From a virus: a DNA stretch of 64,000 nucleotides. Positions 2,036 through 31,306 of the stretch are shown here, piece by piece (the first letter of the stretch is position 1; each line of letters opens with the position of its first letter). Location of the stretch: positions 1 through 64,000 of the IMG/VR virus record IMGVR_UViG_3300032516_000014; one strand, 5' to 3'. The position numbers and the translations under genes were made by a program. Under the pieces are notes generated by a model, which searched no databases, was not told the origin of the DNA, and saw only the letters and a list, made by a program, of their open reading frames with translations.

Positions 2036-2044
2036 GCCCTGTTC

Positions 2045-3360: not shown

Positions 3361-3362
3361 CC

Positions 3363-4724
3363 ATGAAAATAAAATTCAGTGATCAACTCGCGGGAGCGGC
3401 GCCGATGCCCGAACGTCCTGCACCGGCGCAAACGCCGGAAGTCCGGTTCTCGCCAGCCGTGCAGGAAAACACCCGGACTGCCGAGGTGGAACTGGTCAAA
3501 GATGCTGAACCCGCTGGGGTAGCTCCTGTCGTCCAGGCGGGCTCGAAGTGCTACTCCTGCGGACAGCAATTTCGCATCGACATTTACGAAGGTGATTTTT
3601 GTCCGGTGTGCGGCGTGAATCTCAACGGTCCCGGGGCGAAGACAAACACGGAGCGAGCTCGCATGGACGAGGAAAGGGAAAAAGCCTTGGCCGCGCGCGC
3701 GCAAGGCCCCGGGCCGGCGGATCTCGCACAGCAGGAGATGGCCCCGCCTCCCCGCGCCCGCAAACCTCGTGCGACCGCTGTTGTTGCGCCGGCTCCCGAG
3801 CCGGTGGCGCCGCCGGCACCGGTATGCCTGGCGGGTCCTGGGCGGCCGGTGACATTGCCTCCTTCGACCGTCCGGGTGATGCCGCCGGGGCCTTCCATCG
3901 TTGTCTTGCCGCACGCGCGGCCAGCGAATCCCAGCCAGGCCGTAGCGGTAATTCCCGCTACTCGGCAAGCCGTGGTCCTCCACGATCCATCGACGTGGCT
4001 CGATGAAAACGCAGTCCCGATCAGTTTGGAGGACGTTTACATGCCGAGAATCAACATCGTGCAGAAGGTGGGCGATCTCTCGAACGTTCACATCCACGGC
4101 TCCGTCGTGCTCAGTCAAACGCTGGCGCTTTACGTGCCGGAACAAACCTGCCCGGACGGTAAGGGCGGGTTGCAAAAAATCGAGGCCACAGCGCCGTTAC
4201 AAACCGTCATCGTGTGCTTTCGGCCCATGCAATACGTCGAGAAGGTGCCCGGCGGCGAGCATCGCGGGGAGTTGTTCAATTCTCCTGACGAAGTGCTGGC
4301 CTACGGCGGCACGCTGGACTACAATGAAGCGGCCGCAGACCCAAACAAGCCCTACTTCCAGAAGCTCGCCACAGCGTTGGTGATCTTGCGCAAGCCGGAG
4401 TTTGTCGCCGACCTGGAGAGCTTTCCTTACGAGCTCGACGGTATTCGGTATGCCCCGGCGCTCTGGAGCATGAAGGGCACCGCGTTCACGCACGCCTACA
4501 AGGCAATCGCGACCACGAAAGTGCATGGTCCGCTCCGTGGAAGAAAGTATTTCGAGCGGAGCTGGGATCTCTCGACCCAGCTCAAGAAGTTCCAAGCAAA
4601 CTTCGCTTACGTTCCGGTGATCAAGCTGGGCAACGACACGCCGGCAGGATTCCCGCAACTCATTCAGGAGATTCTGTGCCGACCGCGCACGGTCTCCGAA
4701 CCACCGGCCGGGGAGAGTGATTAA
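3363..4724 (+). CDS. Probable ssDNA-binding protein with N-terminal zinc ribbon and Pro/Ala-rich linker
   Basis: CYSC…CPVC; EDVYMPRINIVQK-type C-terminal domain; lies between the nuclease and PolA; acidic tail. Confidence 0.5.
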   Translation: MKIKFSDQLAGAAPMPERPAPAQTPEVRFSPAVQENTRTAEVELVKDAEPAGVAPVVQAGSKCYSCGQQFRIDIYEGDFCPVCGVNLNGPGAKTNTERARMDEEREKALAARAQGPGPADLAQQEMAPPPRARKPRATAVVAPAPEPVAPPAPVCLAGPGRPVTLPPSTVRVMPPGPSIVVLPHARPANPSQAVAVIPATRQAVVLHDPSTWLDENAVPISLEDVYMPRINIVQKVGDLSNVHIHGSVVLSQTLALYVPEQTCPDGKGGLQKIEATAPLQTVIVCFRPMQYVEKVPGGEHRGELFNSPDEVLAYGGTLDYNEAAADPNKPYFQKLATALVILRKPEFVADLESFPYELDGIRYAPALWSMKGTAFTHAYKAIATTKVHGPLRGRKYFERSWDLSTQLKKFQANFAYVPVIKLGNDTPAGFPQLIQEILCRPRTVSEPPAGESD

Positions 4725-4737
4725 CTCACCGGTCCTA

Positions 4738-4910
4738 GTGCCTCTGAACCGACTCCACCCTTTGTTTGGGGGTTCGTGACAACGACGGAGGCGCATACCA
4801 AACAAGCGCGGACTGAAGCATGATCTTACCCCGTTCGATGGGCTGAGGGGAACACCGGGACGCCCGGGAAACCAAGTGTAAGCCCCGCAGGCTCCGCGTT
4901 TTTTTTTCTT
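4738..4910 (+). promoter_or_regulatory. Structured intergenic leader or terminator upstream of the DNA polymerase
   Basis: Stems 4738-4746/4786-4794 and 4804-4812/4893-4901, followed by a T-run just before ATG 4911. Confidence 0.5.
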
Positions 4911-8989: not shown

Positions 8990-9624
8990 GCCAGCCTTTA
9001 TCCGCCGAACGCGAGCGCTTGTTGTTCCAGCGTTTGCCGGGCCTTCAGGGGCGCCGCGCGCTCGCGGAGTTGGCGGAGCATTTCATAGGCATGGCTCAGT
9101 CAGAAGCCTTGCGAATCGCAGGCGATCGAATGGATGAGTCGGAAGTGAAGAGCTTGGCCAGCTCGGTGTTGCTGCAAACACTGAAGGCCTTCAAACTAAG
9201 CCGGAACACTCGGTTTTCGGTCTATTTGCGCAAGGCGCTTTTCCAAGAGATCTCAAACCTGCGCGCCGACGCGTTCTTTCGGTCAGCCGATCGGGTTTGG
9301 TATGGCCGGACGCAAAGCGGAGGAGAACAAGGCAGCCGGCGCAATCCGTCCACGGGGACGATGATGCCGGTGTTTCACGGCGGGGACTCGGAGGGAGTTA
9401 ATCTGGTCACGATCTCTCGCGAATACTTGTATCCGATGATGCGGCTGCTACCTCGTGACGATCAACGTTTGTTGCGGGCGTATTTCTTCCGGGGCCTTAA
9501 CATCGTCCAGATTGCGGAACGTCGTCACGTCACCAAGCAAGCAATCTCTCTTCAGCTTCACAAAGCCTTAGACCGGCTGCGTAAGAAAATGGCTCATGCT
9601 CCCATATCCCTTAAAGACCTATGA
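8986..9624 (+). CDS. RNA polymerase sigma-70-family factor
   Basis: Region 2-like AFKLSRNTRFSVY; region 4 HTH NIVQIAERRHVTKQAISLQLHKALDRLRKK. Confidence 0.8.
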   Translation: MSQPLSAERERLLFQRLPGLQGRRALAELAEHFIGMAQSEALRIAGDRMDESEVKSLASSVLLQTLKAFKLSRNTRFSVYLRKALFQEISNLRADAFFRSADRVWYGRTQSGGEQGSRRNPSTGTMMPVFHGGDSEGVNLVTISREYLYPMMRLLPRDDQRLLRAYFFRGLNIVQIAERRHVTKQAISLQLHKALDRLRKKMAHAPISLKDL

Positions 9625-10157
9625 ACATCGTCGCTCTTGATTTGGGCATTCACACCGGCTTCGCTCACAACGACGGCTTCCAATTTGACTCGGGCACCTG
9701 GGTATTCAAGGGCAAAGCTGACCGGGATCTTGATTATCGCGTCTCCGATTTTTACGGCAAGCTTTACCGGCTGCTTGAGCATCGCCTGGGATCGCCTATA
9801 TACGACTGGGTGGTGTTCGAGGACGTGCAGTTCTCGACCTACACGTATCAAACGCAACTCTGGGCGAGCTTCCGGGCGGCTATGTGGCTCGCGTGTTACC
9901 ACCGGGGGCTTCGCTGCAAAGGAGTCCCGGTCGGCACGTTGAAGAAGTTTGCCACTGGGCACGGCGGCGCGACGAAGGAAATGATGGCCGCCTGGGCAGT
10001 GAAACGGTTTGCGCCTCGGCTTTACCGGGGCAGCGATGGAACAGTGCGTAGTCAGGGAACCAATTTCAAGGTTGACGACAACGAGATTGATGCGATACAC
10101 TTGCACGATCTTGCGACGCATAACGAATTGTATTTGCTGAACCACAAACTCCCATGA
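9621..10157 (+). CDS. RuvC-like Holliday junction resolvase
   Basis: ALDLGIHTG, VFED, LKKFATGHGGATK, DDNEIDA. Confidence 0.85.
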   Translation: MNIVALDLGIHTGFAHNDGFQFDSGTWVFKGKADRDLDYRVSDFYGKLYRLLEHRLGSPIYDWVVFEDVQFSTYTYQTQLWASFRAAMWLACYHRGLRCKGVPVGTLKKFATGHGGATKEMMAAWAVKRFAPRLYRGSDGTVRSQGTNFKVDDNEIDAIHLHDLATHNELYLLNHKLP

Positions 10158-10729
10158 GCGATCAACCCGATGTCCGACCGACGCAGATTGTAACTGTGGA
10201 CGAGCAGGGGCAAACCTTGCATCAGATTGGCGCGCTGCTGGCAATTTGCGGGAGTCTCACGCCTTATGTAATCGAGCAGCACAACGAGAACCCGCACCGC
10301 AAAAAGGAATTGGACGGCGGGGTGCAGTGTTCGGTGGAATCCCTGTTGATCAACACGTGCGACCGGCTGGCTAAGATCGTGGGCGAGGATGCGCGGTGGG
10401 CCTTCGACGAGGTTGCAAACACCGCGAAGAAGCAAAAGTTTCTGGAGAACCTGGAGGCCAACCGGCAGCTTATGCAGTTGCAAGCTGTCTCCGTGGCGGA
10501 GAGTTTGCGGCCCAGTCACCGGGAAGAGCCCGGCATGTTCAAATTGAACGAAACCCTTTACGCGGCCTGCTCTGGTCCTCTGGAGGAGTGGCGATGGCGA
10601 ATGGTCGGCATTGGCCAGTCTCCTTCGGCGGCGCTGCGAGACTATGACCTTCGGCACATGGGGCAGCCGGCTTCCTCCCTCGAAGTGCTGGAAGTCTTGT
10701 TCCCTGAAAACCGCAAACGCAGGAAGTAG
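10154..10729 (+). CDS. Hypothetical protein
   Basis: ATGA-coupled 191-aa ORF in the operon. Confidence 0.7.
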   Translation: MSDQPDVRPTQIVTVDEQGQTLHQIGALLAICGSLTPYVIEQHNENPHRKKELDGGVQCSVESLLINTCDRLAKIVGEDARWAFDEVANTAKKQKFLENLEANRQLMQLQAVSVAESLRPSHREEPGMFKLNETLYAACSGPLEEWRWRMVGIGQSPSAALRDYDLRHMGQPASSLEVLEVLFPENRKRRK

Positions 10730-10731
10730 CT

Positions 10732-11763
10732 ATGAAAAACAAATACCTCGACAAGCAGATTGCAGAAGTAGCGCGCAAAAATCCAAGTTGGGGCCGCGAC
10801 CGGATTGCCAAGGCATTAAATGCGCCGTATAGCACCGTGCGCAACGCACTGCGACGGCTTCAGGCAACGGCGGAAGCCAAGCCCGACAAGCCCTCTGAGT
10901 CTCTTGCGGTGCAAGTCGCGAAGAAAGCTCCCATCGAATTTGGGCGCCTGGGCCTGGAACACGTCGATGCGGGTGACTGGTTTCGCGTTGGCTTGGTGGC
11001 TGATACCCACTTGTGTTGCCAGGAAGAACGCCTTGAAGCGTTGCATTGTCAATACGATCTCTTCAAGTCGGAGGGGATCTCCAGCGTTTTACACGCCGGC
11101 AATTTGGTGGATGGTTGCGTGCCGAAGATCAACGGTGCCTCCGTGATTGTCAGCACCCCCGACGACCAGGCGCAATACGTGATCGACAACTACCCGACGC
11201 GAGCTGGTATTACAACGTATTACATTACCGGAGACGATCACGAGGGTTGGTGGATTAAGCAAGGGCTGAACTGGGGCATCATGCTGCAATACATGGCCAA
11301 GGCCCAAGCACGGGAAGATTTGCATTACATCGGGCACGTCGAAGCTGACGTGGAGATCATGGTCCCGGACACGGTGAAAAAGCCGGTGATCAAGATTCAG
11401 CACCCCGGCGGCGGGAGTTGCTACGCGCGCAGCTACGCGCCCCAACGCACCATCGAGAGTCTTGAAGGCGGGGAGAAGCCGGACGTGCTGGTCCAGGGGC
11501 ACTACCACGTCAACGGGTTTTGGAACGAGCGCAACGTGCACGTGATCACCCTGCCAGGATTCCAGGACCAGACGATCTTTGGTCGAAAGAAGCGTCTGCG
11601 TTTTGAAGTGGGCGGCGCGATCCTTGAATTCAAAGTCAACTCAGCCGGCGCGATCACCCGCTGCCGGTGCGAGTTCAACATGTTCTTCAACCGGGGGTAC
11701 TACAAAGCGTTTTTGCGCTCGGACAGAAAGCTGTTGAAAGGGCATCTGCGACTGACCGTGTGA
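10732..11763 (+). CDS. HTH plus calcineurin-like metallophosphoesterase
   Basis: N-terminal HTH (GRDRIAKALNAPYSTVR); DTH, GNLVDG, GDDHE, HP, GHYH. Confidence 0.85.
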   Translation: MKNKYLDKQIAEVARKNPSWGRDRIAKALNAPYSTVRNALRRLQATAEAKPDKPSESLAVQVAKKAPIEFGRLGLEHVDAGDWFRVGLVADTHLCCQEERLEALHCQYDLFKSEGISSVLHAGNLVDGCVPKINGASVIVSTPDDQAQYVIDNYPTRAGITTYYITGDDHEGWWIKQGLNWGIMLQYMAKAQAREDLHYIGHVEADVEIMVPDTVKKPVIKIQHPGGGSCYARSYAPQRTIESLEGGEKPDVLVQGHYHVNGFWNERNVHVITLPGFQDQTIFGRKKRLRFEVGGAILEFKVNSAGAITRCRCEFNMFFNRGYYKAFLRSDRKLLKGHLRLTV

Positions 11764-12332
11764 AGACGATCCTGCTAACGTATTACGACGACCGGCGGCG
11801 AGACATCGCCCAGGTTGCGGTCCCGGCGATGAAACGCTTTGCCGATGAGAATCAAATCGAGCTGGTCGCACTGGAGGAACCGACGTTGGCGAGCCCGATG
11901 GGGCACAAAATCCTCCTGGTCCTAAAGTTTCTGGAGCAGTGCGACCGCTTGATCTACGCGGACTCCGATGTTTTGTTTCAGAGACACGCAACCCTCCGGG
12001 ATCTGTTTCAGAAACCGGTGGGAGTCTCTCAAGACTACGCCGGCTTATGCACCGGCTTCATGACGTTTGTGCGAGCCGTGAAAGTAGTCGAGCTGGTGAC
12101 TCAGTGGAAGATCCAAGGAGCCCTGCCAATCCCCGGTCGGCCATTTCCGAGCGATCAACGCAGCTTCCAGAAGCTAGTTGCACGTTTGTCCGATGGTAAA
12201 GAATTGGTGGAAGAGCTTTCGCAGGACGTGGTGTCCAATCCATTAAGTTCCAAAATCGGCAGCCTGGCCCATCATTACTGGGCGCAGCATGCGTCCCAAG
12301 TTCTTGACCGAATGAGGCGTAGTTTGCGGTAA
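11760..12332 (+). CDS. GT-A fold glycosyltransferase (GT34/GT77-like)
   Basis: IYADSDVLF DxD motif, LCTGF, DQ; GTGA-coupled start at 11760. Confidence 0.7.
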   Translation: MKTILLTYYDDRRRDIAQVAVPAMKRFADENQIELVALEEPTLASPMGHKILLVLKFLEQCDRLIYADSDVLFQRHATLRDLFQKPVGVSQDYAGLCTGFMTFVRAVKVVELVTQWKIQGALPIPGRPFPSDQRSFQKLVARLSDGKELVEELSQDVVSNPLSSKIGSLAHHYWAQHASQVLDRMRRSLR

Positions 12333-12537: not shown

Positions 12538-12566
12538 AAGCTACACCTGCACGCGGAAATTGTCAA
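12538..12566 (-). promoter_or_regulatory. Sigma-70-type promoter for the tRNA-like RNA
   Basis: TTGACA (12566-12561), 17-nt spacer, TAGCTT (12543-12538). Confidence 0.7.
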
Positions 12567-13507
12567 ACAACTATTTTTCGGATCAAGCTCTCGTAAAACG
12601 GAAGAGCGTTGTCTTCCCAGCGCCGGGGGTAGTTGAATTTGAAGAAGTCCCATTCGTAGTGCGTCTCGGGCCAGGTAACCCCAAACTGAAAAGACCGCCA
12701 GGGAAGAGCGAAAAGATCTTCATCAGAGATTGCGGGACGCTGAAAGATTTGCGTGAAGAGGTCCGCGCCGATCCGGGATATGAGCAACATCGTCGGGTGA
12801 GAAATCAACCAAAAGAGTTTCTCCCGTCGCAGGTGTGCCCGGACAAAAGGTTCAATGGGGGTGTCGCACTGGGCGTCTTTCTGCGCCATGCGGTTCATCG
12901 CTTCGGCGTGCCGGGTGGTAAACTGCGGGTCGAATTGCCCCTCGCGGAGGGCGCGCGCGATCTGATCGTGCGTTTGCCCGGCGCGTAGCAGCCGGCGGAC
13001 GTTCTCCAGGTCTTTTGGGATGTCGGTAACGGGAAAGATGCTGCTGAGAGAAGGCGCGTGCATGCGCAAGCGGCGCCCTGGGATCTCTGCGGCTACTTGA
13101 CTGCCGAACTGCTCTAGGAAAGGTTGGTGCGCCGGCCACGCATTCGAGACATAAAAGTCGGTGTGTTGAAAGAACGCATGCACGAGCGGCTGCGCGAGCA
13201 GGGTGGGGATGCGTTCGGGAAACTTCCAGCTCACGATGCCCCAGCAATTCATCTCCGGCGGGTTAGGGTAGAGTTCCTTCCAGTAGCGGAGCAACTGCCG
13301 CCCGTGGCAGGCGGTGTAAAGTCCGAGCGTGGGCCAGTTCGGGCGCCAGGGCTCTGACCACACGATTGAACGTGGATACCATTCGTCCGCCTGTGCGGGG
13401 GCGGTGAAGAATCGTATTTCTTCGGGGGTAGGCGCGCGAGCCAGCAGGGCAACGAAGACCTGGGTCACGCTCTCCGGGGTGGGGTGCTCGAAGTTCCAGA
13501 TGCTCAC
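12563..13507 (-). CDS. WcbI-like polysaccharide biosynthesis protein
   Basis: LYTACHG and KLFWLISHPT resemble the WcbI-family xxNCQ and LFxxxNHP motifs; GTGA-coupled start at 13507. Confidence 0.55.
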   Translation of the reverse strand: MSIWNFEHPTPESVTQVFVALLARAPTPEEIRFFTAPAQADEWYPRSIVWSEPWRPNWPTLGLYTACHGRQLLRYWKELYPNPPEMNCWGIVSWKFPERIPTLLAQPLVHAFFQHTDFYVSNAWPAHQPFLEQFGSQVAAEIPGRRLRMHAPSLSSIFPVTDIPKDLENVRRLLRAGQTHDQIARALREGQFDPQFTTRHAEAMNRMAQKDAQCDTPIEPFVRAHLRREKLFWLISHPTMLLISRIGADLFTQIFQRPAISDEDLFALPWRSFQFGVTWPETHYEWDFFKFNYPRRWEDNALPFYESLIRKIVV

Positions 13508-13809
13508 GGGATCTCTTCCCTCACCGGGACGGTAGCCAGGTTGTATTTGTGCGCTGCCCAAAGCCGGTGGTGCCCGTCGCTCACAATTCGCCTGCCGTGG
13601 CGCCAGGTGATCAGGACTGGCGTGCGCACCCCGTATTGGCGCACCGAGGAGAGAAAGTGCCGCCAGGCTTCCGGGCAGGCTTGAAAGTGGCGCTGCTCGA
13701 TGTAGGCAAAAACTTCCCCCCAGTTACCCTCGTGGCATCCGCGGTAATCCACGGGGGAAGTGGACGCCAGGATCTCTGCAAGTGGGCGGGTTTCAAAAAG
13801 CGTTTGCAC
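13504..13809 (-). CDS. ParB/Srx-like N-terminal domain protein
   Basis: SVRQYGVRTPVLI…VSDGHHRLWAA…VPV. Confidence 0.85.
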   Translation of the reverse strand: MQTLFETRPLAEILASTSPVDYRGCHEGNWGEVFAYIEQRHFQACPEAWRHFLSSVRQYGVRTPVLITWRHGRRIVSDGHHRLWAAHKYNLATVPVREEIP

Positions 13810-14748: not shown

Positions 14749-17700
14749 TCATTTCGGGCGAATCTCTGCCTTCTCGGCGGATTGCGTAGCGGGTTTCACG
14801 GCGCCGGCTAAACGCTGACGCCGTTCCCACTCGTCCACCAGCACGCGATGCCAGTTTTTATCAACCCGGCGAAACCGATCATCGGTCACTAGACGCTGTA
14901 ACTCGGCGTCGGGCATCCCCTGCGACATCATCTTCTCATTCTGGCTCGCGCGCTTTGGCATAAAATTCGCCGAGTTAATATCGCCCAGGTCGAGGCCCAA
15001 GTCAAGGGGCTGTTCTGTCGGCGCGGCCCGGATCTCCAGCCGGCCAGTTTCCTCGTTTCGTTGCAGCTTTTTCAACGGCTCCTCGAAAGACGCCAGCTCT
15101 TCGCCGGCCCCCCGAGTCCACCCGCGCTCGCCCCACAGCTTCTTTTCCTGAAACCACATCAGGGCTTGCAGGTCGTCCGGCTGCATGTGCAACTCTTTTG
15201 CCGCCTTTGCAAATGCTTCCTGCGCGAACAAGAAGGCGGGATCGGTAATGCCGCCCTCGCTGCGGGGCAGCAATCGCCACGGAGATTTCGTCAGCCCGTC
15301 CCAGCCCAGGCGTTTCATCGTCCGGGAAGCCCACACGTCGATGGTCGCGCCGTGATCGGTGCCCGCCAGGTTTTTCGCAAACTGCTGCGTCTTGAGCCCC
15401 TGCACTTCCTCGGCCCAGGTGCCGGACAGCACCCGCAAAACCTGATCCGAGTTCTGGCCAAATTGTTTTTCGTTCTCGCGAACTAAGGAGAGCTCGCGGC
15501 TTTCGATCCACCACTCCTTCAGCGCAGCGTCGGAGGGCACGATGGTTGAGTTGTTCTCGCGCTGCCATTGCCGCAACAACCCGCCCGTTTCCAGCTTGGC
15601 ATAAGCCTTCTTGTATGAAGCGATCGCGTCGTCGAACTTGCCTTCCTTCCAGAGGTTATACGCTTCGAGAGCATACTTGAAGTTTTGGGCCACGTCAGTT
15701 CTCGCGCTGGTGGCCGCGAGCAACTGGGCGAAAGAAGTAACCTCGGCGTCAGTCTTGAAGTGCTCTTTGATCAGCCGGACGGTTTCTTGATACCAGGACT
15801 TGCCGGCGAGCACGTCTGGGTCAGCAATTGCGCGCGCTTCTTCGGCAATCTTCTTGGCGAATGCAGTCGTCTGGGCATCTTGACGCGCTGACTCTCCGCG
15901 GATTCCTTTGGCAGCTTGCCGGGACAAAGGCGAATCGTCGAACGTGTATTTCACCATGTTCACGAGGGGCTTGCCTTTGGCGTTGATAATGTATTCGCCT
16001 TCGGGGGTTCGCTTGAACAGGACGGGCACTGACTCCGGGTGGAATTCAACACGTTCCTGCGTTACGCGCCGAGCGTAATCCCGAGCAAAGGCTTGCGGGT
16101 CCGTCTCCGTTACCTCGGCCCCGAACTCTGCTTGCTCCGCGTCGCCTTTCTTCGGCTTGGGCATGAACGCGGCTCGTTGCGCGCCAGTGTCAGAAATGAG
16201 GGGGAGGTGATCCAACTTGTCGATGCCCTCATACTCCACCAGGTTTGCGGCGCCTCCATCGACAATCTTCATTTTGCCGTTGAGGATGTTGACCCGCATG
16301 TGGTCGATGTCGTCGAGGTTCTCGCGCACCAACTGGAAAATCTTGTCCTTCGCATCCGTGGTCCAGGCGTTCTCGGAAGCCTCGATCGCTAGCGTTCCGG
16401 TGCGAGGTTCGTAGCGAACGCGAATGAAGCCTTCTCGAATGGCCTTCTCTCGTTCAGCAATGTCGGGCACGTTTGCAAAGTCCGTGCCGTATTCCGCGTT
16501 GAGCTTAGCGCTATTACGGGCCAGCCAGTCCTCGTGCATGCTGCCCTGGATGGAGCGGAACTTTCCGTCGGGGTCGATCCACCCGGAGGTTTCCAGCTTC
16601 TCAGGTTCCTCCCGCCGGCCGCGCTTAGCCATCATTGCTGCTTCGGGCGGTTTGGGCAGCTCGGCTGGGATCGCGTTCTCTCCCTTCAACAACGCTTGCA
16701 CCGCCTTCGCAATCTGCGCGGGAGAGGTCAGAACGGTTTTCCCAGTGCCGCCCACCGGGATTGAGTGTCCGTAAGGGTCCTTCTCCGTGGGCACCGTGTC
16801 ATAAATCGCCTGCTGCTGGTTGAACTTCCCAAAAGCGATCGTGTTGTCCCGATGCTTCTGATCAGGCAGCGCATTCACGTCGATGCTTGTCTGCGTCGGG
16901 TCGTCCATCTTGAACACCCCCATAGCCGTCCCCGGAATTGCAAGCACGTCCTCGTATCGGTCGGCTACTTTTTGCACCGCCGCCGGAGTGAGTGCCTTCG
17001 TCAGCACGTTCTCGCTGGCCACGGTGACGATGTCCACTTTCTGATCTTTTCGATCCCACACCTTGCCGGCGCCGGTGAACGTCTGCCCAGAGCTGGTGCC
17101 CTCGCGAACCTTTGCAAGTTCGTCGGCGACTTCCTTCGATTTCTCAAACGCTTGCGGCATGAAGGCGCCGTGAAACTGCGCAACCCTTGACGAAGTGCGA
17201 CTGGGCAAGTGGCCGGCGCGATAAAACTCTTTGATGTCGTTGATAATTACCGTTGGATTCGTGACGGCCGGATAAACCCGGCTATCACGTGCGTAACCGT
17301 TTTGATCAACTAAATCAACAGCCACCTCCCCCCACTCATTTTTCAAACTCGGATCAGCGAAGAAACTTTCCAGCTTGCGATATTGTGCCTCAGAAGGTTC
17401 TTTGTTTGAGGAGATCTCCGCACCGGGTAACTCCGGCATGATTCGGATCGCGCCGGAATTGACAAACGCTGTCAGCCCGGATGTTTCACCGGAGTAACCC
17501 AATTTCCCAGCACCGGCTTTCTTCGATGCCGCCGCTATGAACGGGGTAAGCATGTTTTCTCCCACCGCTTCAGCAATCGAAGAGTGGTCGATCGTGCGTT
17601 TGTAATCTCCAGGCGGGGCATCGGGACCTTTGCCGGTGAAATCAAGCTGCGTGCCGTCGGGTAGTAGATAGCCGGTCTCCTTCCACTTCTCCGTGTCTCC

Positions 17701-20700
17701 GTATTCCCGCCAGGCGGCGCGATGCAAGCGTCGAGCGTATGTAGTCAGTAACTTGTCTTCGGACTCCTTGCGCTTGGCCATGAACGCACCTTCGGCCTTG
17801 CCGGTGGGTTCATCAACAATTTTCCATCCGAGACGATTAAGAGCGCTCTCGAAAACATCAGTCCCGACAGGAAGTGTTCCGCGGGGAACGCCGGGTAGAG
17901 GCTCCCACACAGTCACAACTCTTGTCAGAGCTCCAGTAGCAGGAGAATACCGGGGCTTGCCAACCGATGCCCGCACAAGTTGGTTGTCGGGACCCTGCAA
18001 CAAAACGCTCACGTCTCCGGGTGTCGATTTCGGTATGTTCTTAAAAGACCAGCCGGATTTGTTTCTCCAAGCAGAGCGTTCCATTACTTCTGCTCCCGTT
18101 TCTTTTTGCCCGGGGATGTCCTCGGGTAAAATAGGCAGATCAGCCATTCCAGCGACTCGACTTTTCGTCATGAACGCACCTTCGGCCTTGCCGGGCGTCT
18201 TGTCAAGTTGCTGCGAGGCCCAGTCGTAGATCTCGCGCGCGAAATTCTCGTGGATCGCCGGGTCGGTGTGGAACGACTTCGCGAGCACGTTCTCATCCAC
18301 GTCGGCGGCAGAGGTCGTCTTCAACTCCTTCGACAACTCGCTGCCCTCATACACGGCCAGGTTGTAGATGTTCGCGTGGCTGATCACGTCTGAATTCTTC
18401 CGGAGGAAGTCCATCGTGTGCGCATAGGTCGCCGCGGTCTCCCCCGGCAACCCGATCACGATGTTCGGAATGAACGCGATGCCCAGCCGGCGCATCTGCT
18501 CGGTGGCGGCGTCGATCAACTTCTCGTTCGCCGGTTTGCGCTGACCTTTCAGCACGCTGTCGTTGTAGGACTCGACGCCCAGCTCGATGAACTTGATGCC
18601 GCTCTTGCGCAGGAATTCGTCGCTGAAGGACTTCATTTGCGCCGCCGTCGTCTGAATCACGAAGCCCCCGAAGTCGGGATTCGCAGCCTTCATCTTGGCA
18701 TAGAGCTCGGGCAGTCGCAAGTAACTGTCGTGATGGCCGAAGGTTTTGTCGTTGAGATAAGCCAGCGGCGCATTCAGATCGCCGAAGGCGTCCACTTGCT
18801 GAGTCACTACCTCGGGCGGCGTCCCAACGACCTTTTTCGTGGTCGTGCAGAACTTGCACGCGTGCCGGCACCCCTGCGAGAGATCCAGCCGAGGAACAAC
18901 GGAAGAACCCCGATACAAGCGGTAGTCAAAGCCGCGTTTGTATTCCAGCCCAAGAGATCGAACGTATTCATCGATGGATTCATACCGGGTTGCGCGAGGG
19001 TTGCGCGAGGTGATCTCGCTGGTGTCCGTGTAGCCGCCCAGGACCGTGTGGCCTGGATTTGCGTCCGCGAGCTCCGCGACCTTCGACTTGTTCACGTCGA
19101 GCACCGAGAAGGCCACGTCCTGGTAGCCCGCTGTGGCGAGAAAGCTCTTGGCTTCCGCCATGTCGCGCACCACGTAGAGATCCGCCGCCTCGCCAAGCGC
19201 GTGTGTCAACACTGCGTGCCACTGCGGGACTTCCCAGAAGTCGGGCAGTCGAGCATACCCCTTGCGCTGCGCATACAGCTTGTCGTAATATGCGGATGCA
19301 GCAACATCCAAGGGATTTGGAGGTTTGTTCACGTCGGTTGGGGCATACATCATGTCCTTCGTGAACTGCATCAGCAACACCCGGTTGGAGTTGTCCGACG
19401 CTCCCGACTGGCGAACCCATAGGTTGCCCTTGCCCCGCTCGACCGCGTGCCCATACGTATCCGCAGGCTCCGTAATCTCGCTGCCGCGCGCCTTGGGCAT
19501 GAACGCCGCCGGGGTGAGGCCGGCGGATTCCCCCGGAAGAGCGGGCCGGTCGGGGTTTGTCTCAGAGCTTCCGACCATGCCATCAGGAATGTCGATCGGT
19601 CGCTGCGGAGTCGGCCCGAGTGGTTCAGTTGTCGCAGGGGCATCTTCTACCGTCCAACCCTTCTTGTTTAGCGAGGGCTCGTATGTGGTGCTACGCGCGG
19701 TGAAAGCACCGGGGAAAGATTCCTTGGGTGTGATCTGTCGCACCATACCCAGGCCCAGCACGGAGGCATCCTGGTCCCCGTCGTGCGTGGCTGCGACTCG
19801 TTCCCCGTTCGGCCCCACCAGGGTTACGTCACGCTTCGGCATGAAGCCGGCGCGAGCCAGGTCCGTCGAAGGCATGCGCAGCAAAGACTCAGGCCGCGGC
19901 GTGAGACCGCGGATCTGCTCCAGACTGAGCTCTTGCGTGACTTCGTGCAACTGCCCTTTCGCGTCGAAGCCGGCGTCCACCAGCTCCGCCCGCAGGGGGT
20001 TGGTCTCCATGACCGGCACGTCTTCCGGGACGATGATGCCCTTCTTGGCAAGAGCTTCCTTCTTGAAGACCGGCGCGCCTTTCGCGGGGGTAAGCGGGCG
20101 CCCATGCGCCTCTGCAAGTATCTGTGCCGCCATTCCCGCGGGCATCGGCATACCCGAAGGTCCGGTTCGCTGGGCAACTCGGCCAGTTTTCGGCGGAGCG
20201 AGGCCCATCGAGGCGTTGATGAATTGCGCTTTCCGCGGATCAAGAAGGGTCGGCTTCCAGTTTGGATCTGGCGCCGGGATTACCCCTTGCCAGCCTGCGG
20301 GTGGGTGCATCGCCGTGCCGTCGCCGCCGTAGCCGTGAGCGTGATTGCGCAGGTAAGAGGTTACATCAGCCGCAAAGTCCCTAAATCCAGGCTCCGTGAA
20401 ATGCCCGTCCGACCCTGTTTCATACGGCACAAGACCTGGTGCCTTCTTGCGAGCGGAAAACTCTCCAATCCGTAGCGCATTCGCGAGCAGGATGTCGAGG
20501 TTCATCGACAGCAGGTTTACGTTGTCTCCGCGAACCTTAACGCCATAGAATATCGCTTGATGTCGGAGCGTCCGCAAGAGTTCAACCGGATAGGTCCCGT
20601 CCGCCTTGCGCTGCAATTCGACTTCAAGACGCTCCGCCCTGCGGATGTATCTTGCCACGTTTTCACCAACCGTTTCGGGCCGGGCATAGTCGAGCTCCAC

Positions 20701-23175
20701 TGGAGTAACATCGCCATGTTCCCGTTGCAGCAATTCCCAAACCTGGTCCATCACTGCCTTGGCGTTGTCGTCGTATTTCGGGGAAGCTTGCGTGCGGCGG
20801 CGCGCTTCGGAAAGCCCTTCGATGTCTTTCGCCTGGGCGACGAATTCTTTGGTGCCTACGCCTGGCGGGCGCATGAGCGAAGCCTGCGCGCCTGTCGTTG
20901 CCGCTCGAATCGGCACCGCTCCAGGCACCCCGGGGGCTGGACGAAGAACGGGCTGGATCTCCAAAGCTTTCAACCTCTCCGCCAGCACGGGAGTTTCCAG
21001 AGAACGAAAAACAGGTTCGGCAAGCTGTCGCCCTGTAAAAGAGGGCGTCAAACCGCCGTGGCGGCCGGTGATAAAAGTTTTCGGATCGAGAGTTGGGCGA
21101 ACTATGCCTGCCTTTTCAAATAGCGAGCCCAGAGCTGTAAACGCGGAGTTTAGCACTCCGGGTGGCGCGCCGTTCAAAGACCGCCCACGTAGAATGGCGC
21201 CCAGGGTCTCCGCAGAAGCTTCGTCCAGAATGTTGCCGGTCGCACCTTTGCCCCCGTAAAGCTCTTCAAGCGCGGGGCGGATCGGGTTGACGTGCGTAGC
21301 CAGATCTGCCCGATACTTTTCCCAGGCAGGCCGATCTGTCTCCCGAAGCAGCCAGTCGAGCACGTGCCCGGGCTCATGATAAACTGCGGCGTCCCCACCA
21401 TTCAACAACATGACTTTCCGTGGTCCCCGGCCTTCCGTCGGATCAAGCCGGACGGTGAAGCCACGCTGCCCCCGGGCTTCAGCAATCAGTTGCTCCGGCG
21501 TGAAGTCCGGGTGTTCGCGTTGAACTTCAGCCAACACCCGCGGATCTTGGGCAAACTGGTCCACAGGCAGCAAGTAAAGCTCAGCCTTGCCGCGGAAGTA
21601 TTCCCGCACCCGATTGATCAAACCTGCTGTGGGGGAATCGTTCCTGCGCAACGCTTCAATCGCCTGCGTGTGGGCCTGATCGAGGTTGGGTTCGATGTTG
21701 AAAGCCGGTGAACGCACCGGGTCACGCGCGACTTCCTGATACCGCGCCTGGTAAGCCCTTGCGACGCCTTCGTGCGCAGCAGAAACGGCTTGACGTGTTG
21801 CTCCCCCGAAGCCACCAAAGAAAGCCATCGTGCCGATGAGCTGCCCCGCCTCCATGTCAGTATGCGCCCCCAGGGCAAACGGCGCGCTCGCAAGACCGCC
21901 TTCGATTGCGCCAGCCACCGCCGGGGTTGCAAGTTTTGCGATCGGCAACGCGTTCTCAGCCAGGGCTGCTCCGCCGCGCTTCAAACCCCACTCCGTCCCC
22001 TTTGTCACAGCATGCGCAACTTTGCCGGCGACCCAGCCCCCCGGACCCGCCGTGACTGCCCCGCCGAGCGGAGCTTCTTTTCCGACCCAACCCACCACAG
22101 GAGCCGCCGCTTTTTCTGCGGCCCATCCCGCACCTTTGAAAAGCTTCGCCAGGGAAAATTCTGTTGCGATGCCGATGGTCTTTCCTCCAAGACCGATCAC
22201 CTCGAACAGCTTGCCTCCGCCCATCGGAATGAACGTCATCGGCCCGTTGAAGAGCGACTTGTCTGCGATCGCTTCTGGATCGAGGGTAACACCGGCGGCC
22301 TGCAATCGCTCCGGGGTAACGCCTGCCAAGGAAGATACGACCCCACCTCCCTGCGCAACGTTTGTGTGCCGACGAAAACTTTCTGCGTCGGCGTCGAGGT
22401 CCTCACGCAACCGCAGACGGCGAGCCTCGGGATTCTCCTCCACCTTCGCCCGTTGGCCAGTCACCTCACCGGGAACACCGGGCACCCCCGGCACCGGGGC
22501 CGCTCGATACACCCGGCCCGCCGTCCGGGAAACAAGAGTAGCCAGATCCCGAGCTTGCAGAATTCCTTCGTCGATTGACGCTACGCTTTCGCCCGCAATC
22601 TTCGCCGCTGCCGCCAGCGTTGAATCCCGCACTTCCATGTTGTTTTCCAACATGTCTTTCGCGAAGGCCCAGGCTAGTTTCGCTTCACCCGCGGCGGCCC
22701 CCGCGACCGCGCGCACCCCACTCTTGCCCGTTTCCCACAAGCCTCGGCCGATCGCTTTTGCGGTGCGCCCCACTTCCCACGGCCGCGCGTCTTGTGCATC
22801 GTAAATCTCGTAAAGCTTCTCGCGCAAATCAGGCGGCAAGTCTTTTCCGTATTGGCCCAGCATCGCCACTGGTGAAAACGCGTCATCCGCCGCTAGTTCT
22901 TGCGGCGTGCGCTCCATCAGTTTCCCGATGTCTGGATTTTGAGGAGCCTGGGAAAACTCCGCAGTGCTTGGTCCTATTGAAGGGATATGCACCGCCCTTG
23001 GGGCAGCCTGAAACTCGTCAAGGGTAGGCGCAGCCGGTGTCACCGGAGCGGCGGCTTGAAACTCGGCGAGATCCGGCACTGGCGCAGCGGCGTTGAATTC
23101 TTCCACCGAAGGCGGGAGAAAAATTCCCGAAGCCGTAGCCTTTTGAATCGGCGACTCTTTGAGTTCGACAGGCAT
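14749..23175 (-). CDS. Giant (2808 aa) polyvalent protein, probable internal virion/ejection protein; HExxH peptidase motif, radical SAM and HhH-like modules separated by xFMPK linkers
   Basis: Follows the GNAT and two ejection-like genes; HEPGH at 21364-21378; CRHACKFC at 18847-18870; eight FMPK-like motifs. Confidence 0.85.
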   Translation of the reverse strand: MPVELKESPIQKATASGIFLPPSVEEFNAAAPVPDLAEFQAAAPVTPAAPTLDEFQAAPRAVHIPSIGPSTAEFSQAPQNPDIGKLMERTPQELAADDAFSPVAMLGQYGKDLPPDLREKLYEIYDAQDARPWEVGRTAKAIGRGLWETGKSGVRAVAGAAAGEAKLAWAFAKDMLENNMEVRDSTLAAAAKIAGESVASIDEGILQARDLATLVSRTAGRVYRAAPVPGVPGVPGEVTGQRAKVEENPEARRLRLREDLDADAESFRRHTNVAQGGGVVSSLAGVTPERLQAAGVTLDPEAIADKSLFNGPMTFIPMGGGKLFEVIGLGGKTIGIATEFSLAKLFKGAGWAAEKAAAPVVGWVGKEAPLGGAVTAGPGGWVAGKVAHAVTKGTEWGLKRGGAALAENALPIAKLATPAVAGAIEGGLASAPFALGAHTDMEAGQLIGTMAFFGGFGGATRQAVSAAHEGVARAYQARYQEVARDPVRSPAFNIEPNLDQAHTQAIEALRRNDSPTAGLINRVREYFRGKAELYLLPVDQFAQDPRVLAEVQREHPDFTPEQLIAEARGQRGFTVRLDPTEGRGPRKVMLLNGGDAAVYHEPGHVLDWLLRETDRPAWEKYRADLATHVNPIRPALEELYGGKGATGNILDEASAETLGAILRGRSLNGAPPGVLNSAFTALGSLFEKAGIVRPTLDPKTFITGRHGGLTPSFTGRQLAEPVFRSLETPVLAERLKALEIQPVLRPAPGVPGAVPIRAATTGAQASLMRPPGVGTKEFVAQAKDIEGLSEARRRTQASPKYDDNAKAVMDQVWELLQREHGDVTPVELDYARPETVGENVARYIRRAERLEVELQRKADGTYPVELLRTLRHQAIFYGVKVRGDNVNLLSMNLDILLANALRIGEFSARKKAPGLVPYETGSDGHFTEPGFRDFAADVTSYLRNHAHGYGGDGTAMHPPAGWQGVIPAPDPNWKPTLLDPRKAQFINASMGLAPPKTGRVAQRTGPSGMPMPAGMAAQILAEAHGRPLTPAKGAPVFKKEALAKKGIIVPEDVPVMETNPLRAELVDAGFDAKGQLHEVTQELSLEQIRGLTPRPESLLRMPSTDLARAGFMPKRDVTLVGPNGERVAATHDGDQDASVLGLGMVRQITPKESFPGAFTARSTTYEPSLNKKGWTVEDAPATTEPLGPTPQRPIDIPDGMVGSSETNPDRPALPGESAGLTPAAFMPKARGSEITEPADTYGHAVERGKGNLWVRQSGASDNSNRVLLMQFTKDMMYAPTDVNKPPNPLDVAASAYYDKLYAQRKGYARLPDFWEVPQWHAVLTHALGEAADLYVVRDMAEAKSFLATAGYQDVAFSVLDVNKSKVAELADANPGHTVLGGYTDTSEITSRNPRATRYESIDEYVRSLGLEYKRGFDYRLYRGSSVVPRLDLSQGCRHACKFCTTTKKVVGTPPEVVTQQVDAFGDLNAPLAYLNDKTFGHHDSYLRLPELYAKMKAANPDFGGFVIQTTAAQMKSFSDEFLRKSGIKFIELGVESYNDSVLKGQRKPANEKLIDAATEQMRRLGIAFIPNIVIGLPGETAATYAHTMDFLRKNSDVISHANIYNLAVYEGSELSKELKTTSAADVDENVLAKSFHTDPAIHENFAREIYDWASQQLDKTPGKAEGAFMTKSRVAGMADLPILPEDIPGQKETGAEVMERSAWRNKSGWSFKNIPKSTPGDVSVLLQGPDNQLVRASVGKPRYSPATGALTRVVTVWEPLPGVPRGTLPVGTDVFESALNRLGWKIVDEPTGKAEGAFMAKRKESEDKLLTTYARRLHRAAWREYGDTEKWKETGYLLPDGTQLDFTGKGPDAPPGDYKRTIDHSSIAEAVGENMLTPFIAAASKKAGAGKLGYSGETSGLTAFVNSGAIRIMPELPGAEISSNKEPSEAQYRKLESFFADPSLKNEWGEVAVDLVDQNGYARDSRVYPAVTNPTVIINDIKEFYRAGHLPSRTSSRVAQFHGAFMPQAFEKSKEVADELAKVREGTSSGQTFTGAGKVWDRKDQKVDIVTVASENVLTKALTPAAVQKVADRYEDVLAIPGTAMGVFKMDDPTQTSIDVNALPDQKHRDNTIAFGKFNQQQAIYDTVPTEKDPYGHSIPVGGTGKTVLTSPAQIAKAVQALLKGENAIPAELPKPPEAAMMAKRGRREEPEKLETSGWIDPDGKFRSIQGSMHEDWLARNSAKLNAEYGTDFANVPDIAEREKAIREGFIRVRYEPRTGTLAIEASENAWTTDAKDKIFQLVRENLDDIDHMRVNILNGKMKIVDGGAANLVEYEGIDKLDHLPLISDTGAQRAAFMPKPKKGDAEQAEFGAEVTETDPQAFARDYARRVTQERVEFHPESVPVLFKRTPEGEYIINAKGKPLVNMVKYTFDDSPLSRQAAKGIRGESARQDAQTTAFAKKIAEEARAIADPDVLAGKSWYQETVRLIKEHFKTDAEVTSFAQLLAATSARTDVAQNFKYALEAYNLWKEGKFDDAIASYKKAYAKLETGGLLRQWQRENNSTIVPSDAALKEWWIESRELSLVRENEKQFGQNSDQVLRVLSGTWAEEVQGLKTQQFAKNLAGTDHGATIDVWASRTMKRLGWDGLTKSPWRLLPRSEGGITDPAFLFAQEAFAKAAKELHMQPDDLQALMWFQEKKLWGERGWTRGAGEELASFEEPLKKLQRNEETGRLEIRAAPTEQPLDLGLDLGDINSANFMPKRASQNEKMMSQGMPDAELQRLVTDDRFRRVDKNWHRVLVDEWERRQRLAGAVKPATQSAEKAEIRPK
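17779..18194. repeat. Exact 26-bp direct repeat CATGAACGCACCTTCGGCCTTGCCGG at 17779-17804 and 18169-18194
   Basis: Read directly; 390 bp apart, in frame; encodes GKAEGAFM on the minus strand. Confidence 0.95.
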
Positions 23176-28385: not shown

Positions 28386-28529
28386 TTACAGGGTCATGAA
28401 CACCGTTGCGCCCGAGCCGGACACCGGGGCCGACGAGGGCAGCCCGGTCGGTTCGCCGAAGAACGCAGGGCTCTCGTAATCGTCCGGGATTTCCCGGCGG
28501 GTGATCGGTCTGGAAACTTCGTCGTTCAT
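28386..28529 (-). CDS. Small hypothetical protein (MNDEVSRPITRRE…)
   Basis: ATGA-coupled to the upstream stop. Confidence 0.5.
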   Translation of the reverse strand: MNDEVSRPITRREIPDDYESPAFFGEPTGLPSSAPVSGSGATVFMTL

Positions 28530-31306
28530 TTTGTCATTGTGTGCACGTCCACGAGCACCCCGCCCTTGGTGATGCACGTCAGCGTAAACGTCACCGGGGT
28601 TGCCCAGATTCGCATCGCAAAGTTGTCCGTGCTGGTTTCCGAATACCGGACCACACTACCCGGATACACCAGCGCCGGGTTGAACAGTCGCATCGTATTC
28701 TGGCCGCCGCCCCCGCCCGCAATGAAGTCGCAGCCACCAATCACCAAGCGTTCATAAACGTGCGAATGCCCCGACAACACCAAATCCGCGCCCCACGCAT
28801 GGAACGGCCAGCGCAGCCGAAGCTGGCCTGGATAATAGTTGTTGGTCGTGGTGCCCGAGACATACGGCGCCTGGTGCATGACGACAATCTTCCACGGCGC
28901 CGTCGAACTGGCCATAGCCGCCTGAAGCCAGAGCGCCTGCACCGAGGTCTCATCGTTACCGTCGGGCTCGCACACCGGCAACCCCGTGCCCGAGCTGGCG
29001 GTGTTGATGCCCGTGCTGAGGACGAACACCTCGATGTTGCCCACGCGCCGGGAGAAATACCTCGCCTGGCCCAGGAACCCAAACAGGAACGCGCCACACC
29101 CAAGATCGAAGTCGTGATTTCCCGCCGCGGCGATCAGCGTGCCATTCGTCACAAAAGACGAGTAAGCCGCCAGCGCCGGGGTGTAATTCGCCGGATTTGC
29201 CGAGTCGTTGATGTCCCCGCCCATGACCACGAGGTCGGGATTCCAGCTCAACACTTCGGCAGCGACCGAGTTATGATTCGCGCTCGGAAGCCCGGTGTCC
29301 GAGACGAAAGCAATCACCGTTTGGCCAGCCACAGGGACCAACGGCGCCGCCGGCTGCCCCACGAACAACCCAATAGAATAATCCGGCGGACAAATCGCCT
29401 GCAAGTGCTGCACAGCGCGCTGCGTCGCAATTTGTAGCGCCACTTTGTCCGCCGTCTCCTGGCTAATGTGGGACCGGGCCACGGCCGTTTGCGTGGTAGT
29501 CCGACCTTTGAGGGCCAAGGTAATCGACTGCATCGAATCGTAAACGTCCGCGCTTGCGTTAAGCGGCGTGAGATCCCCCGCCGCCGCCGCACCGTCAAAT
29601 CGCACCGCTCGAACAGTAGATTCATCAGCCTCGCAAACACCCTCAGCCTGCTCCGCCTTCATGTCCGCGAAAGCCCGGCACTCCAGGATCGCCGCCTGGC
29701 CACACCACGTGACCAACAACTGAAACGCATAGTCCCGCTGCTCCTGATCTGCGCTTTCCACTCCGGCGGAGGAATCGAGCAGCTCATACGTCGCCCGAAT
29801 GTCCGCGGTCCGGGTCCACCGGGACTGCTTCTTGTAGGCGAACACTTGCGAGGCCATCGTCAATTGCGCCTGCGCATCTAAATCTCCTGTCGGCGCCTCC
29901 ACCCGCTTCAGCAACGCGGTCTTGTATTTCCCCCGCTCCGCCCCGGCCCACTGGACCTTCATGTCCACCACGCCGCTTAGCTCCCCCCAGTGAATGTCCG
30001 CGTAGCGGAGGTGCTTCTTGCCCCTGGTGCCGAATTGCAGCGCGCGCATCTCCACCCAAGCGGTAATGTCAACGCCATGATCCTGCCGCTCAGACTGGAA
30101 GGCCTCCCACAACCGGTTGGTGCCGTCGTAGTCCACCGAAATGTGGAAACAACGCTCCTGCCCGTTCACGTCTCCGCTGGCCCACTCCACCGGCCGGGTG
30201 CCAGTCCAGAACGCATTCCACACCGCCGGAGACTTCTCCGTCAGCGTGGTGAGCACGTTGTGATCGAGAACCCACGTATGGTGGTTGTAGGCATCGTGCA
30301 CCGGAACACTCACCAAGAGGTAATTCTCGAACCGAGAGCACGCAATAAACTCCTGGCGATTCCACATCCTCGACTTGCTGTCTGCCATTTCGTTGTCAAG
30401 AATGAAAAACTCGCTCGTCTGCTGCACGGACCGCGCGGCGTCGTAGGAGGTCAGCCCGTATTGCGAGAACCAATAAAGGCGGCCGTGCAAAGAAATCACT
30501 GACCGCTGCGATTTGCAACCGATGGTCGGAAAAAGAGTGGTCTGGAAATCCTGGATGCTGGTCCACAAGTTCCGCTGCAACACCTGCGACTGAAACATCG
30601 TGGTGTCCTTCTCCGAAAACACCAACAGGTTTTGAGGAGCGCCCGATCCCCCCACGTTCGCCATCGCCGTAACCTCGTGCTCCAACATGAACGCATCCGT
30701 GCCGCCCAGGTAAAGGTTCTCGGTATAGTGAAACGGGTCCCAGATGTCAGAGGCGTAGATTAAATTCCGCTGCGCCACCCACAACCGATTGCCGCTCCAG
30801 CACATCGCAGTGCCCTGGGGCACGCCGTCGGGGTCTGTGGTATGCCCGCACGCGCTGCCGTCATACCAAGCCGGCGGCGCGTAGCCGTCCTGCATGAACA
30901 GAATCAACCGGGGCCGAACGAAAGACAGCGATCCGTCCGGGTTCAGCGTAACCGCCTGCTGTGCGTCAGCCCAAAATATCTGGTCCGCATAAGGGCAGAA
31001 GGTAATCTCCGACAACCAGGTAAAGGTCGTGAAGGGCGGCTCCGAAACATACACCTTGCCTTCTACCACTACCACAAGCTGGGGCGTGGCTTTCAGCGGG
31101 CGGAACAGATGCAACCCTTGCAACTTACCTTCGGGCAGGTTACACATCCACCGATACCCAGGCCGGGTCTGCACGACGCCACCGCGGTTCACCACGTTCA
31201 TGCCGCGGCAATACGTGCCTTGCGCAAGCTTCAGCGAGTCAGACTGCGAGTCTTGACCGAGCAAGAAGTTGAGCTCGCCGTCGGATTGGAAGGTAGGAAG
31301 CGGCAT
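28526..31306 (-). CDS. Tail nozzle/stabilisation-like protein fused to a C-terminal calcineurin-like phosphoesterase
   Basis: MNVVNRGGVVQTRPG start and beta-propeller-like body; C-terminal SDTG, GGDIND, GNHD, HQAPY, GHSH. Confidence 0.75.
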   Translation of the reverse strand: MPLPTFQSDGELNFLLGQDSQSDSLKLAQGTYCRGMNVVNRGGVVQTRPGYRWMCNLPEGKLQGLHLFRPLKATPQLVVVVEGKVYVSEPPFTTFTWLSEITFCPYADQIFWADAQQAVTLNPDGSLSFVRPRLILFMQDGYAPPAWYDGSACGHTTDPDGVPQGTAMCWSGNRLWVAQRNLIYASDIWDPFHYTENLYLGGTDAFMLEHEVTAMANVGGSGAPQNLLVFSEKDTTMFQSQVLQRNLWTSIQDFQTTLFPTIGCKSQRSVISLHGRLYWFSQYGLTSYDAARSVQQTSEFFILDNEMADSKSRMWNRQEFIACSRFENYLLVSVPVHDAYNHHTWVLDHNVLTTLTEKSPAVWNAFWTGTRPVEWASGDVNGQERCFHISVDYDGTNRLWEAFQSERQDHGVDITAWVEMRALQFGTRGKKHLRYADIHWGELSGVVDMKVQWAGAERGKYKTALLKRVEAPTGDLDAQAQLTMASQVFAYKKQSRWTRTADIRATYELLDSSAGVESADQEQRDYAFQLLVTWCGQAAILECRAFADMKAEQAEGVCEADESTVRAVRFDGAAAAGDLTPLNASADVYDSMQSITLALKGRTTTQTAVARSHISQETADKVALQIATQRAVQHLQAICPPDYSIGLFVGQPAAPLVPVAGQTVIAFVSDTGLPSANHNSVAAEVLSWNPDLVVMGGDINDSANPANYTPALAAYSSFVTNGTLIAAAGNHDFDLGCGAFLFGFLGQARYFSRRVGNIEVFVLSTGINTASSGTGLPVCEPDGNDETSVQALWLQAAMASSTAPWKIVVMHQAPYVSGTTTNNYYPGQLRLRWPFHAWGADLVLSGHSHVYERLVIGGCDFIAGGGGGQNTMRLFNPALVYPGSVVRYSETSTDNFAMRIWATPVTFTLTCITKGGVLVDVHTMTK

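Follow-up and report, generated by a model that had tools for sequence, protein, structure and literature searches.

A giant phage protein with predicted radical SAM and Ogg-like glycosylase modules, best classed among the polyvalent proteins

Polyvalent proteins are thought to form a first-strike toolkit that is sent into the host with the phage DNA, and methylases, ADP-ribosyltransferases, peptidases, nucleases and other enzymes have been catalogued among them. As described by Iyer et al. (2017; PMC5512222), they are giant multi-effector proteins with ART-PolyVal and LPD domains that are proposed to be delivered with DNA; the text of that survey makes no mention of radical S-adenosylmethionine (SAM) enzymes, and was not searched for DUF7178, a family treated below. 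A second relevant system is that of phage M6, in which gp53, an SPL-like radical SAM isomerase, and aGPT-Pplase, an HhH-glycosylase-like amino acid:DNA transferase, take part in thymidine hypermodification (PMC8989533). Here we describe a radical SAM module and its partner, a DUF7178 module, in the giant protein P0001 of an uncultured phage. Its gene lies in a window of 64,000 nucleotides, positions 1-64,000 of IMG/VR virus record IMGVR_UViG_3300032516_000014, and coordinates are given in the numbering of this window (Table 1). The full record, most of which the window covers, is 76,395 bp long, has direct terminal repeats and is rated complete.

A preliminary description of this DNA had recognised a radical SAM enzyme at 18177-19492 from its motifs. 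All of these motifs are present there, within the 14749-23175 open reading frame (ORF), and the identification is borne out by profile and structural comparisons. The module matches Pfam Radical_SAM (PF04055) above the curated cut-off (35.4 bits against 29.5, and 41.5 bits in the genome search). An AlphaFold2 model of residues 1227-1667, built from a 20-sequence alignment, has a mean predicted local distance difference test score (pLDDT) of 92.5 and a predicted template modelling score of 0.89, and Foldseek gave 147 matches to it in the PDB at E ≤ 1e-3, with radical SAM enzymes throughout among the matches listed. A radical SAM fold is therefore predicted, with the partial TIM barrel common to solved enzymes of this kind. 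An N-terminal Rossmann-type domain, whose strand and helix pattern occupies module residues 40-181 of the model, is packed against the barrel. The structural neighbours found by Foldseek and VIA were AprD4, MgmA, MiaB, CysS, TsrM and OxsB; two-domain VIA alignments with MgmA, CysS, TsrM and OxsB cover residues 33-441, and it is with two-domain enzymes only that the alignments begin at model residue ∼33-39. The module is a radical SAM enzyme of two domains, the Rossmann-like one lying N-terminal to the SAM-binding partial TIM barrel.

The three cysteines of the CxxxCxxC motif are invariant in all 20 members of the alignment (A1), in which no other cysteine is invariant, and the NDKTF, QTT, ELGVES and GLPGET motifs are invariant or almost so. 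Family alignments contain no invariant cysteine within module residues 1-200, and no SPASM domain, RRE domain or auxiliary-cluster cysteines were found in the module. As only three cysteines are invariant, a single [4Fe-4S] cluster is predicted, and assignment as a methylthiotransferase of the MiaB/RimO/MtaB type was rejected because the three conserved N-domain cysteines that hold the auxiliary [4Fe-4S] cluster of those enzymes are missing. With its motifs intact, the module looks active, and catalysis is predicted. In an exhaustive HMMER search, 295 representatives of clusters at 50% identity reached E ≤ 1e-30. Family members are 40-59% identical across the full 441 residues and nearly all lie within proteins of 1500-5200 residues, of which the radical SAM module is the most conserved portion. 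The module is under strong purifying selection.

The preliminary description had gone further in calling the enzyme B12-type (class B, cobalamin-binding). The two-domain architecture fits that call, since a Rossmann-type domain packed against the barrel is the fold of class B enzymes, as it is of AprD4 and the methylthiotransferases; the profile evidence does not. The B12-binding family PF02310 has no match on P0001 at E ≤ 1 and none in the genome at E ≤ 10, Pfam B12-binding is lacking in the relatives, among the 120 listed, and a profile of the N-domain run against PDB sequences retrieved no cobalamin domain and nothing else of relevance. In this the module differs from the class B enzymes MgmA (9ccb), CysS (9n1d), TsrM (6wte), TokK (7kdx) and OxsB (5ul3). 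Its best NCBIfam matches are to class B families (PhpK, HpnJ and the ladderane B12-radical SAM family), with all scores about 10-fold below the cut-offs. In favour of cobalamin we counted the invariant S-x-L and GG elements on the third and fourth strands of the N-domain, the invariant DFWExPxW loop, which we take to occupy the place where cobalamin domains have DxHxxG, and the Atlas ordering, in which bacterial B12-binding radical SAM clusters come directly after the viral clusters. A cellular homologue from Aliirhizobium, which retains the N-domain motifs (hhalign 99.8%, E 2e-29), also counts in favour: it has a sub-threshold PF02310 match (24.1 bits against 32.1), and its apparent operon encodes a PduO-type cobalamin adenosyltransferase. 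On the other side, the closest single solved enzyme, AprD4, is a dehydratase that reportedly works without cobalamin. The case for cobalamin use, which would make the module a methyl-transferring enzyme, is only circumstantial, with hints only from the distant cellular relative; as the evidence is mixed, the module is not filed as class B. The gene of the cellular relative stands in an apparent operon on an Aliirhizobium smilacinae contig (L077:7356-14821), with genes for a solute-binding protein, two ABC permeases, a class II aldolase, an aldehyde dehydrogenase, a PduO-type cobalamin adenosyltransferase and a PNP_UDP_1 phosphorylase. This may be an uncharacterised catabolic pathway and a possible clue to the ancestral chemistry of the family.

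The second module of interest matches Pfam DUF7178 over residues 2432-2675 of P0001. In the family alignment (A4), W-Y, S, K and D residues are invariant, the last two being K257 and D275. An AlphaFold2 model is helical, with a pLDDT of 77.5, and has the two-lobe helical fold typical of HhH-GPD proteins. All of the best ten Foldseek rows were Ogg or AGOG enzymes, and the best six matches of a sequence profile against the PDB were all Ogg2-type N-glycosylase/DNA lyases, albeit with a best E of only 0.004. The catalytic Lys and Asp of MjOgg and SsOgg align with K2595 and D2613, which lie 18 residues apart; a Lys and an Asp ∼18-20 residues apart after the hairpin are characteristic of Ogg2/AGOG enzymes. 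The model and these alignments indicate an Ogg2-like HhH-GPD glycosylase fold for DUF7178, in which both catalytic residues, Lys and Asp, are preserved, and glycosylase activity is predicted.

The radical SAM module is linked to DUF7178 both by fusion and by gene neighbourhood. DUF7178 is present in 75 of 174 giant radical SAM proteins, downstream of the radical SAM module in 70 of the 75, and no other Pfam family is as common within three genes of the stand-alone radical SAM genes. A search with a family hidden Markov model placed a DUF7178 gene near 8 of 20 stand-alone loci, several of them adjacent or overlapping (for example L057, L052 and L064). Separate, adjacent radical SAM and DUF7178 genes were seen in other phages at L057:4804-6587, L052:63-2113, L064:9926-11592 and L048:8710-11230; the adjacent pairs lie among small genes, and in L057 the stop and start of the two genes overlap. 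Other stand-alone radical SAM loci have DNA methylase genes among their neighbours.

IMG/VR holds at least 71 loci of the radical SAM family, ∼50 in open frames of 1100-5278 residues and 19 as stand-alone genes of ∼380-440 residues. Eight loci only were found in 185,579 prokaryotic species genomes: three are giant ORFs on metagenome-assembled genome (MAG) contigs, one is a stand-alone gene adjoining DUF7178 on a MAG contig, and four are distant stand-alone cellular relatives. The giants that bear the family differ in their combination of domains, among them GNAT, ART-PolyVal, LPD22, LPD23, NUDIX, ParB, histidine phosphatase, SLT and HATPase, and such variety is a hallmark of the polyvalent proteins (PMC5512222). 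A search of the literature on radical SAM enzymes with polyvalent or ejection proteins, and on DUF7178, found no earlier description; the mention of radical SAM in a paper on N4 ejection proteins concerns only an HExxH motif and is irrelevant to the module. The pair of radical SAM and Ogg-like glycosylase modules is not previously listed among phage cargo proteins.

P0001 is built as a cassette. The motif [AG]xFM[PAT][KQ] occurs in it eight times, in every case at a module edge, and these copies split the protein into about nine modules, of which the radical SAM module is exactly one inter-motif unit. A broader form of the pattern has 12 occurrences against ∼1.25 expected. In relatives, motifs of the same class (AQFQP, RFQPK, RFMP, FMAEK, QFQP and FQPK) flank the radical SAM module at equivalent positions in diverged DNA, the N-terminal one at position -2 of the module start. 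Retention of the motif class despite DNA divergence points to selection on the peptide, that is, on a recognition or cleavage site, and the junctions are probably cleavage sites. The obvious candidate protease, judged from its motif, is perhaps the HExxH domain of the 1110-residue N-terminal module. Of 9 alignable relatives, 8 retain this motif, and nothing in the genome matched the Pfam MPTase-PolyVal model.

The same linkers mark gains and losses of whole modules. Modules 1 and 3, which lie upstream and downstream of the radical SAM module, share a diverged ∼65-residue domain (28% identity, pairwise BLASTP E 2e-5), and the copy in module 1 (copy A) stands directly upstream of the radical SAM module in seven relatives. 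Module 3 (copy B) is bracketed by a 31-nucleotide direct repeat, 94% identical, at 17774-17804 and 18164-18194. Near-identical copies of P0001 occur in other metagenomes (P0002-P0004): P0004, which is 99% identical, lacks exactly module 3 (residues 1670-1797), and P0003 carries ∼128 extra residues in the same region. Modules recombine independently among relatives. As near-identical phages differ by whole modules at the linkers, the linkers also act as recombination joints.

The genomic setting of the giant gene is that of a late block on the minus strand, which starts at the terminase gene, continues with three collagen-like fibre paralogues and further tail-like genes, and then reaches the gene for a 926-residue protein that may be another enzyme-bearing virion protein; four genes separate the latter from P0001. 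Synteny of the giant gene with tail and internal-virion-like genes is conserved in eight related contigs. This gene position and conserved synteny suggest that virions contain the giant protein and eject it along with the DNA. The N-terminal module, presumed to be a structural or delivery chassis, is partly common to 22 relatives (25-36% identity) and has no family match in Pfam or PHROGs; the sole PHROGs match of P0001 is to a family of unknown function, over the DUF7178 part. A hydropathy scan of its Gly/Ala-rich N-terminal stretch gave no segment above 1.4, so no claim of membrane insertion is made. Three tandem paralogues of ∼350 residues (40891-44083, minus strand) and a fourth gene (36336-37478, minus strand) have collagen-like repeats and tail-fibre PHROG matches. 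At the end of the block, a 332-residue protein (12563-13561, minus strand) contains a WcbI-like polysaccharide-biosynthesis enzyme domain (E 1.6e-7) and could be a capsule- or lipopolysaccharide-modifying enzyme.

Table 1. Positions in the window of P0001, its modules and motifs, and the surrounding genes.
Feature	Position	Strand	Remarks
P0001, giant ORF, 2808 aa	14749..23175	-	One unbroken open frame; ≥9 modules, including radical SAM, HhH-GPD-like (DUF7178) and HExxH modules
Radical SAM module, aa 1227-1667	18175..19497	-	
CxxxCxxC (CRHACKFC), aa 1436-1443	18847..18870	-	Predicted [4Fe-4S] cluster ligands
Radical SAM barrel core, aa 1433-1591	18403..18879	-	Pfam envelope; NDKTF, QTT, ELGVES and GLPGET motifs
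Rossmann-like N-domain	18955..19380	-	Five strands; secondary structure of AlphaFold2 model
Invariant N-domain elements	19219-19242; 19099-19107; 19033-19038	-	DFWExPxW loop; S-x-L; GG
DUF7178 module, aa 2339-2737	14965..16161	-	Modelled Ogg2-like HhH-GPD glycosylase fold
Invariant DUF7178 residues	15391-15393; 15337-15339	-	Lys (K2595); Asp (D2613)
N-terminal module, 1110 aa	19846..23175	-	Presumed structural or delivery chassis
HEPGH (HExxH)	21364..21378	-	Candidate zincin peptidase, inside the N-terminal module
Module 1, aa 1113-1224	19504..19839	-	Upstream of radical SAM; diverged copy of module 3
Module 3, aa 1670-1797	17785..18168	-	Small domain downstream of radical SAM
FMPK junction	19492..19503	-	N-terminal edge of radical SAM module
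FMTK junction	18163..18174	-	C-terminal edge of radical SAM module; part of 31-nt direct repeat
Remaining FMPK-type junctions	19834-19845; 17773-17784; 17152-17163; 16624-16635; 16156-16167; 14953-14964	-	
Four genes between 926-aa gene and P0001	27206-28381; 26004-27260; 24563-25528; 23177-24559		
926-aa protein	28526-31306	-	Internal-virion-protein PHROG match; calcineurin-like metallophosphoesterase domain
Terminase	53261-55183	-	Start of long minus-strand block
Replication genes	402-12332	+	Helicase, exonuclease, PolA, sigma factor, RuvC

The explanation we prefer, to which we would give an even chance as a whole, is that the radical SAM and DUF7178 modules are delivered, cleaved at their junctions and act on DNA or a nucleotide, the most likely substrate of the radical SAM enzyme. 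The giant protein would be ejected with the DNA into the next host, where its modules could be released as separate enzymes by cleavage at the FMPK-type junctions, perhaps by means of the HExxH domain. Host systems would rebuild or load the radical SAM cluster and reduce it, and the enzyme might then modify a nucleobase or sugar of DNA or of a nucleotide by means of a 5'-deoxyadenosyl radical. Early in infection, N-glycosides of the same class would afterwards serve as substrate for the glycosylase-like DUF7178 module. A sharper version, in which a self-cleaving virion polyprotein delivers both enzymes and these, once re-metallated, rewrite or excise a specific base in incoming phage or host DNA within the first minutes, seems to us quite unlikely; if true, it would amount to an as yet undescribed sort of injected kit for radical DNA editing or anti-restriction, widespread in uncultured phages.

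Several observations weigh against the preferred explanation. An oxygen-labile cluster would not be expected to survive unfolding and ejection and would need rebuilding in the host, and the genome contains no flavodoxin, as judged from one Pfam family. P0001 itself matched no polyvalent-specific Pfam family, including PF18818. Cleavage at the linkers is a proposal, and the junction motifs could be recombination joints only. A search of the genome with Pfam HhH-GPD (PF00730) gave nothing at E ≤ 10. DUF7178 accompanies only ∼40% of the radical SAM family members, so the two modules may simply share a niche. Small molecules, rather than DNA, are suggested as substrates by AprD4, the nearest structure, and by the operons in which the cellular relatives lie, with their genes for an ABC importer, class II aldolase, aldehyde dehydrogenase, nucleoside phosphorylase, kinase and IMPase. 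Finally, tblastn searches of 50,697 GenBank phage records with the whole protein and with the module found no family members, just two weak matches to unrelated radical SAM genes, so no annotated or cultured relative is available.

The chief competing account follows from the small-molecule point. The radical SAM module could convert a free sugar or nucleotide into an antimetabolite or destroy a host immune signal, with DUF7178 acting as a QNG1-like nucleotide N-glycosidase. AprD4 is an aminoglycoside diol dehydratase, OxsB acts on dAMP and dATP, and viperin is likewise cited as an analogue; that AprD4 and OxsB are structural neighbours of the module favours such chemistry, as does the importer, aldolase, phosphorylase, kinase and IMPase content of the cellular operons. 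However, the cellular relatives are distant and their substrate may differ, stand-alone genes of the family are located near DNA methylases, and DUF7178 most closely resembles genuine Ogg2 DNA glycosylase/lyases, with retention of the Lys that these use for Schiff-base lyase chemistry on DNA. We regard this account as unlikely. A target among proteins or peptides, in the manner of MgmA, Mmp10 or RimO, seems very improbable. Whether the substrate were a host defence or translation factor or the flanking ∼65-residue domains, the module has none of the SPASM, RRE or auxiliary-cluster features noted above; the flanking domain is moreover missing from most relatives and from the stand-alone genes, and P0004 retains the radical SAM module without copy B. 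That the module is a degenerate or purely structural relic without catalysis is scarcely credible, given a Cys triad and SAM-binding motifs that are invariant over ∼300 diverged clusters and its standing as the most conserved portion of its proteins.

Delivery is a separate issue from substrate. P0001 may not be injected at all: it could be expressed late and work in the cytoplasm of the producing cell, as a multi-enzyme or polyprotein directed at progeny DNA or host metabolism, its gene position reflecting no more than late transcription. Fe-S chemistry would be easier in that cytoplasm, none of the domains identified in P0001 is a structural or packaging one (MuF or portal-binding, for instance), and other phages have ordinary stand-alone genes for both radical SAM and DUF7178, surrounded by small genes of the early or middle type. 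We nevertheless think this somewhat unlikely: homologous giants sharing the radical SAM module contain ART-PolyVal, LPD22 and LPD23 and so belong to the class proposed for delivery with DNA (PMC5512222), the synteny with tail and internal-virion-like genes is conserved, and the neighbouring 926-residue gene matches an internal virion protein PHROG.

If a radical SAM enzyme served in a polyvalent role, radical chemistry would join the first-strike toolkit, and one would have to ask how an Fe-S enzyme can be packed into particles, ejected and made active again. With ∼300 clusters at 50% identity, the family is large; it is also strongly conserved, unnamed and absent from all cultured phage genomes searched. 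Through its repeated association with DUF7178, two "unknowns" become a two-enzyme system that can be tested and is probably nucleobase-directed. The junction motifs, together with the gain and loss of whole modules between 99%-identical phages, offer a clean model for the assembly and processing of polyvalent proteins.

AprD4 (PDB 6fd2), the radical SAM 1,2-diol dehydratase of apramycin biosynthesis, is only 17-18% identical to the phage module, which scores 21.5 bits against a cut-off of 500 with the NCBIfam AprD4 model and has an extra N-terminal extension of ∼90 residues that includes the DFWExPxW loop; AprD4 belongs to an antibiotic gene cluster, whereas the radical SAM module is part of a phage polyprotein. 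DUF7178 differs from the Ogg2/AGOG enzymes Tm1821 (3n0u), MjOgg (3knt) and SsOgg (3fhg) in the large helical insertions of the copy in the window. The M6 pair of gp53 and aGPT-Pplase is similar in that a phage radical SAM enzyme and a protein of DNA-glycosylase fold act successively on DNA bases (PMC8989533). It differs in the type of radical SAM enzyme, in that DUF7178 is much nearer to true glycosylases, and in that the present genome contains no thymidylate-synthase-like gene. Like the polyvalent proteins of PMC5512222, P0001 is a giant protein that strings together unrelated effector enzymes, with an HExxH domain as a candidate for self-processing; it differs from those surveyed in its regular FMPK-type junctions and in the whole-module insertions and deletions between near-identical phages. 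The locus is best classed as encoding a polyvalent phage protein with a previously uncatalogued cargo, a radical SAM enzyme and a predicted Ogg-like glycosylase.

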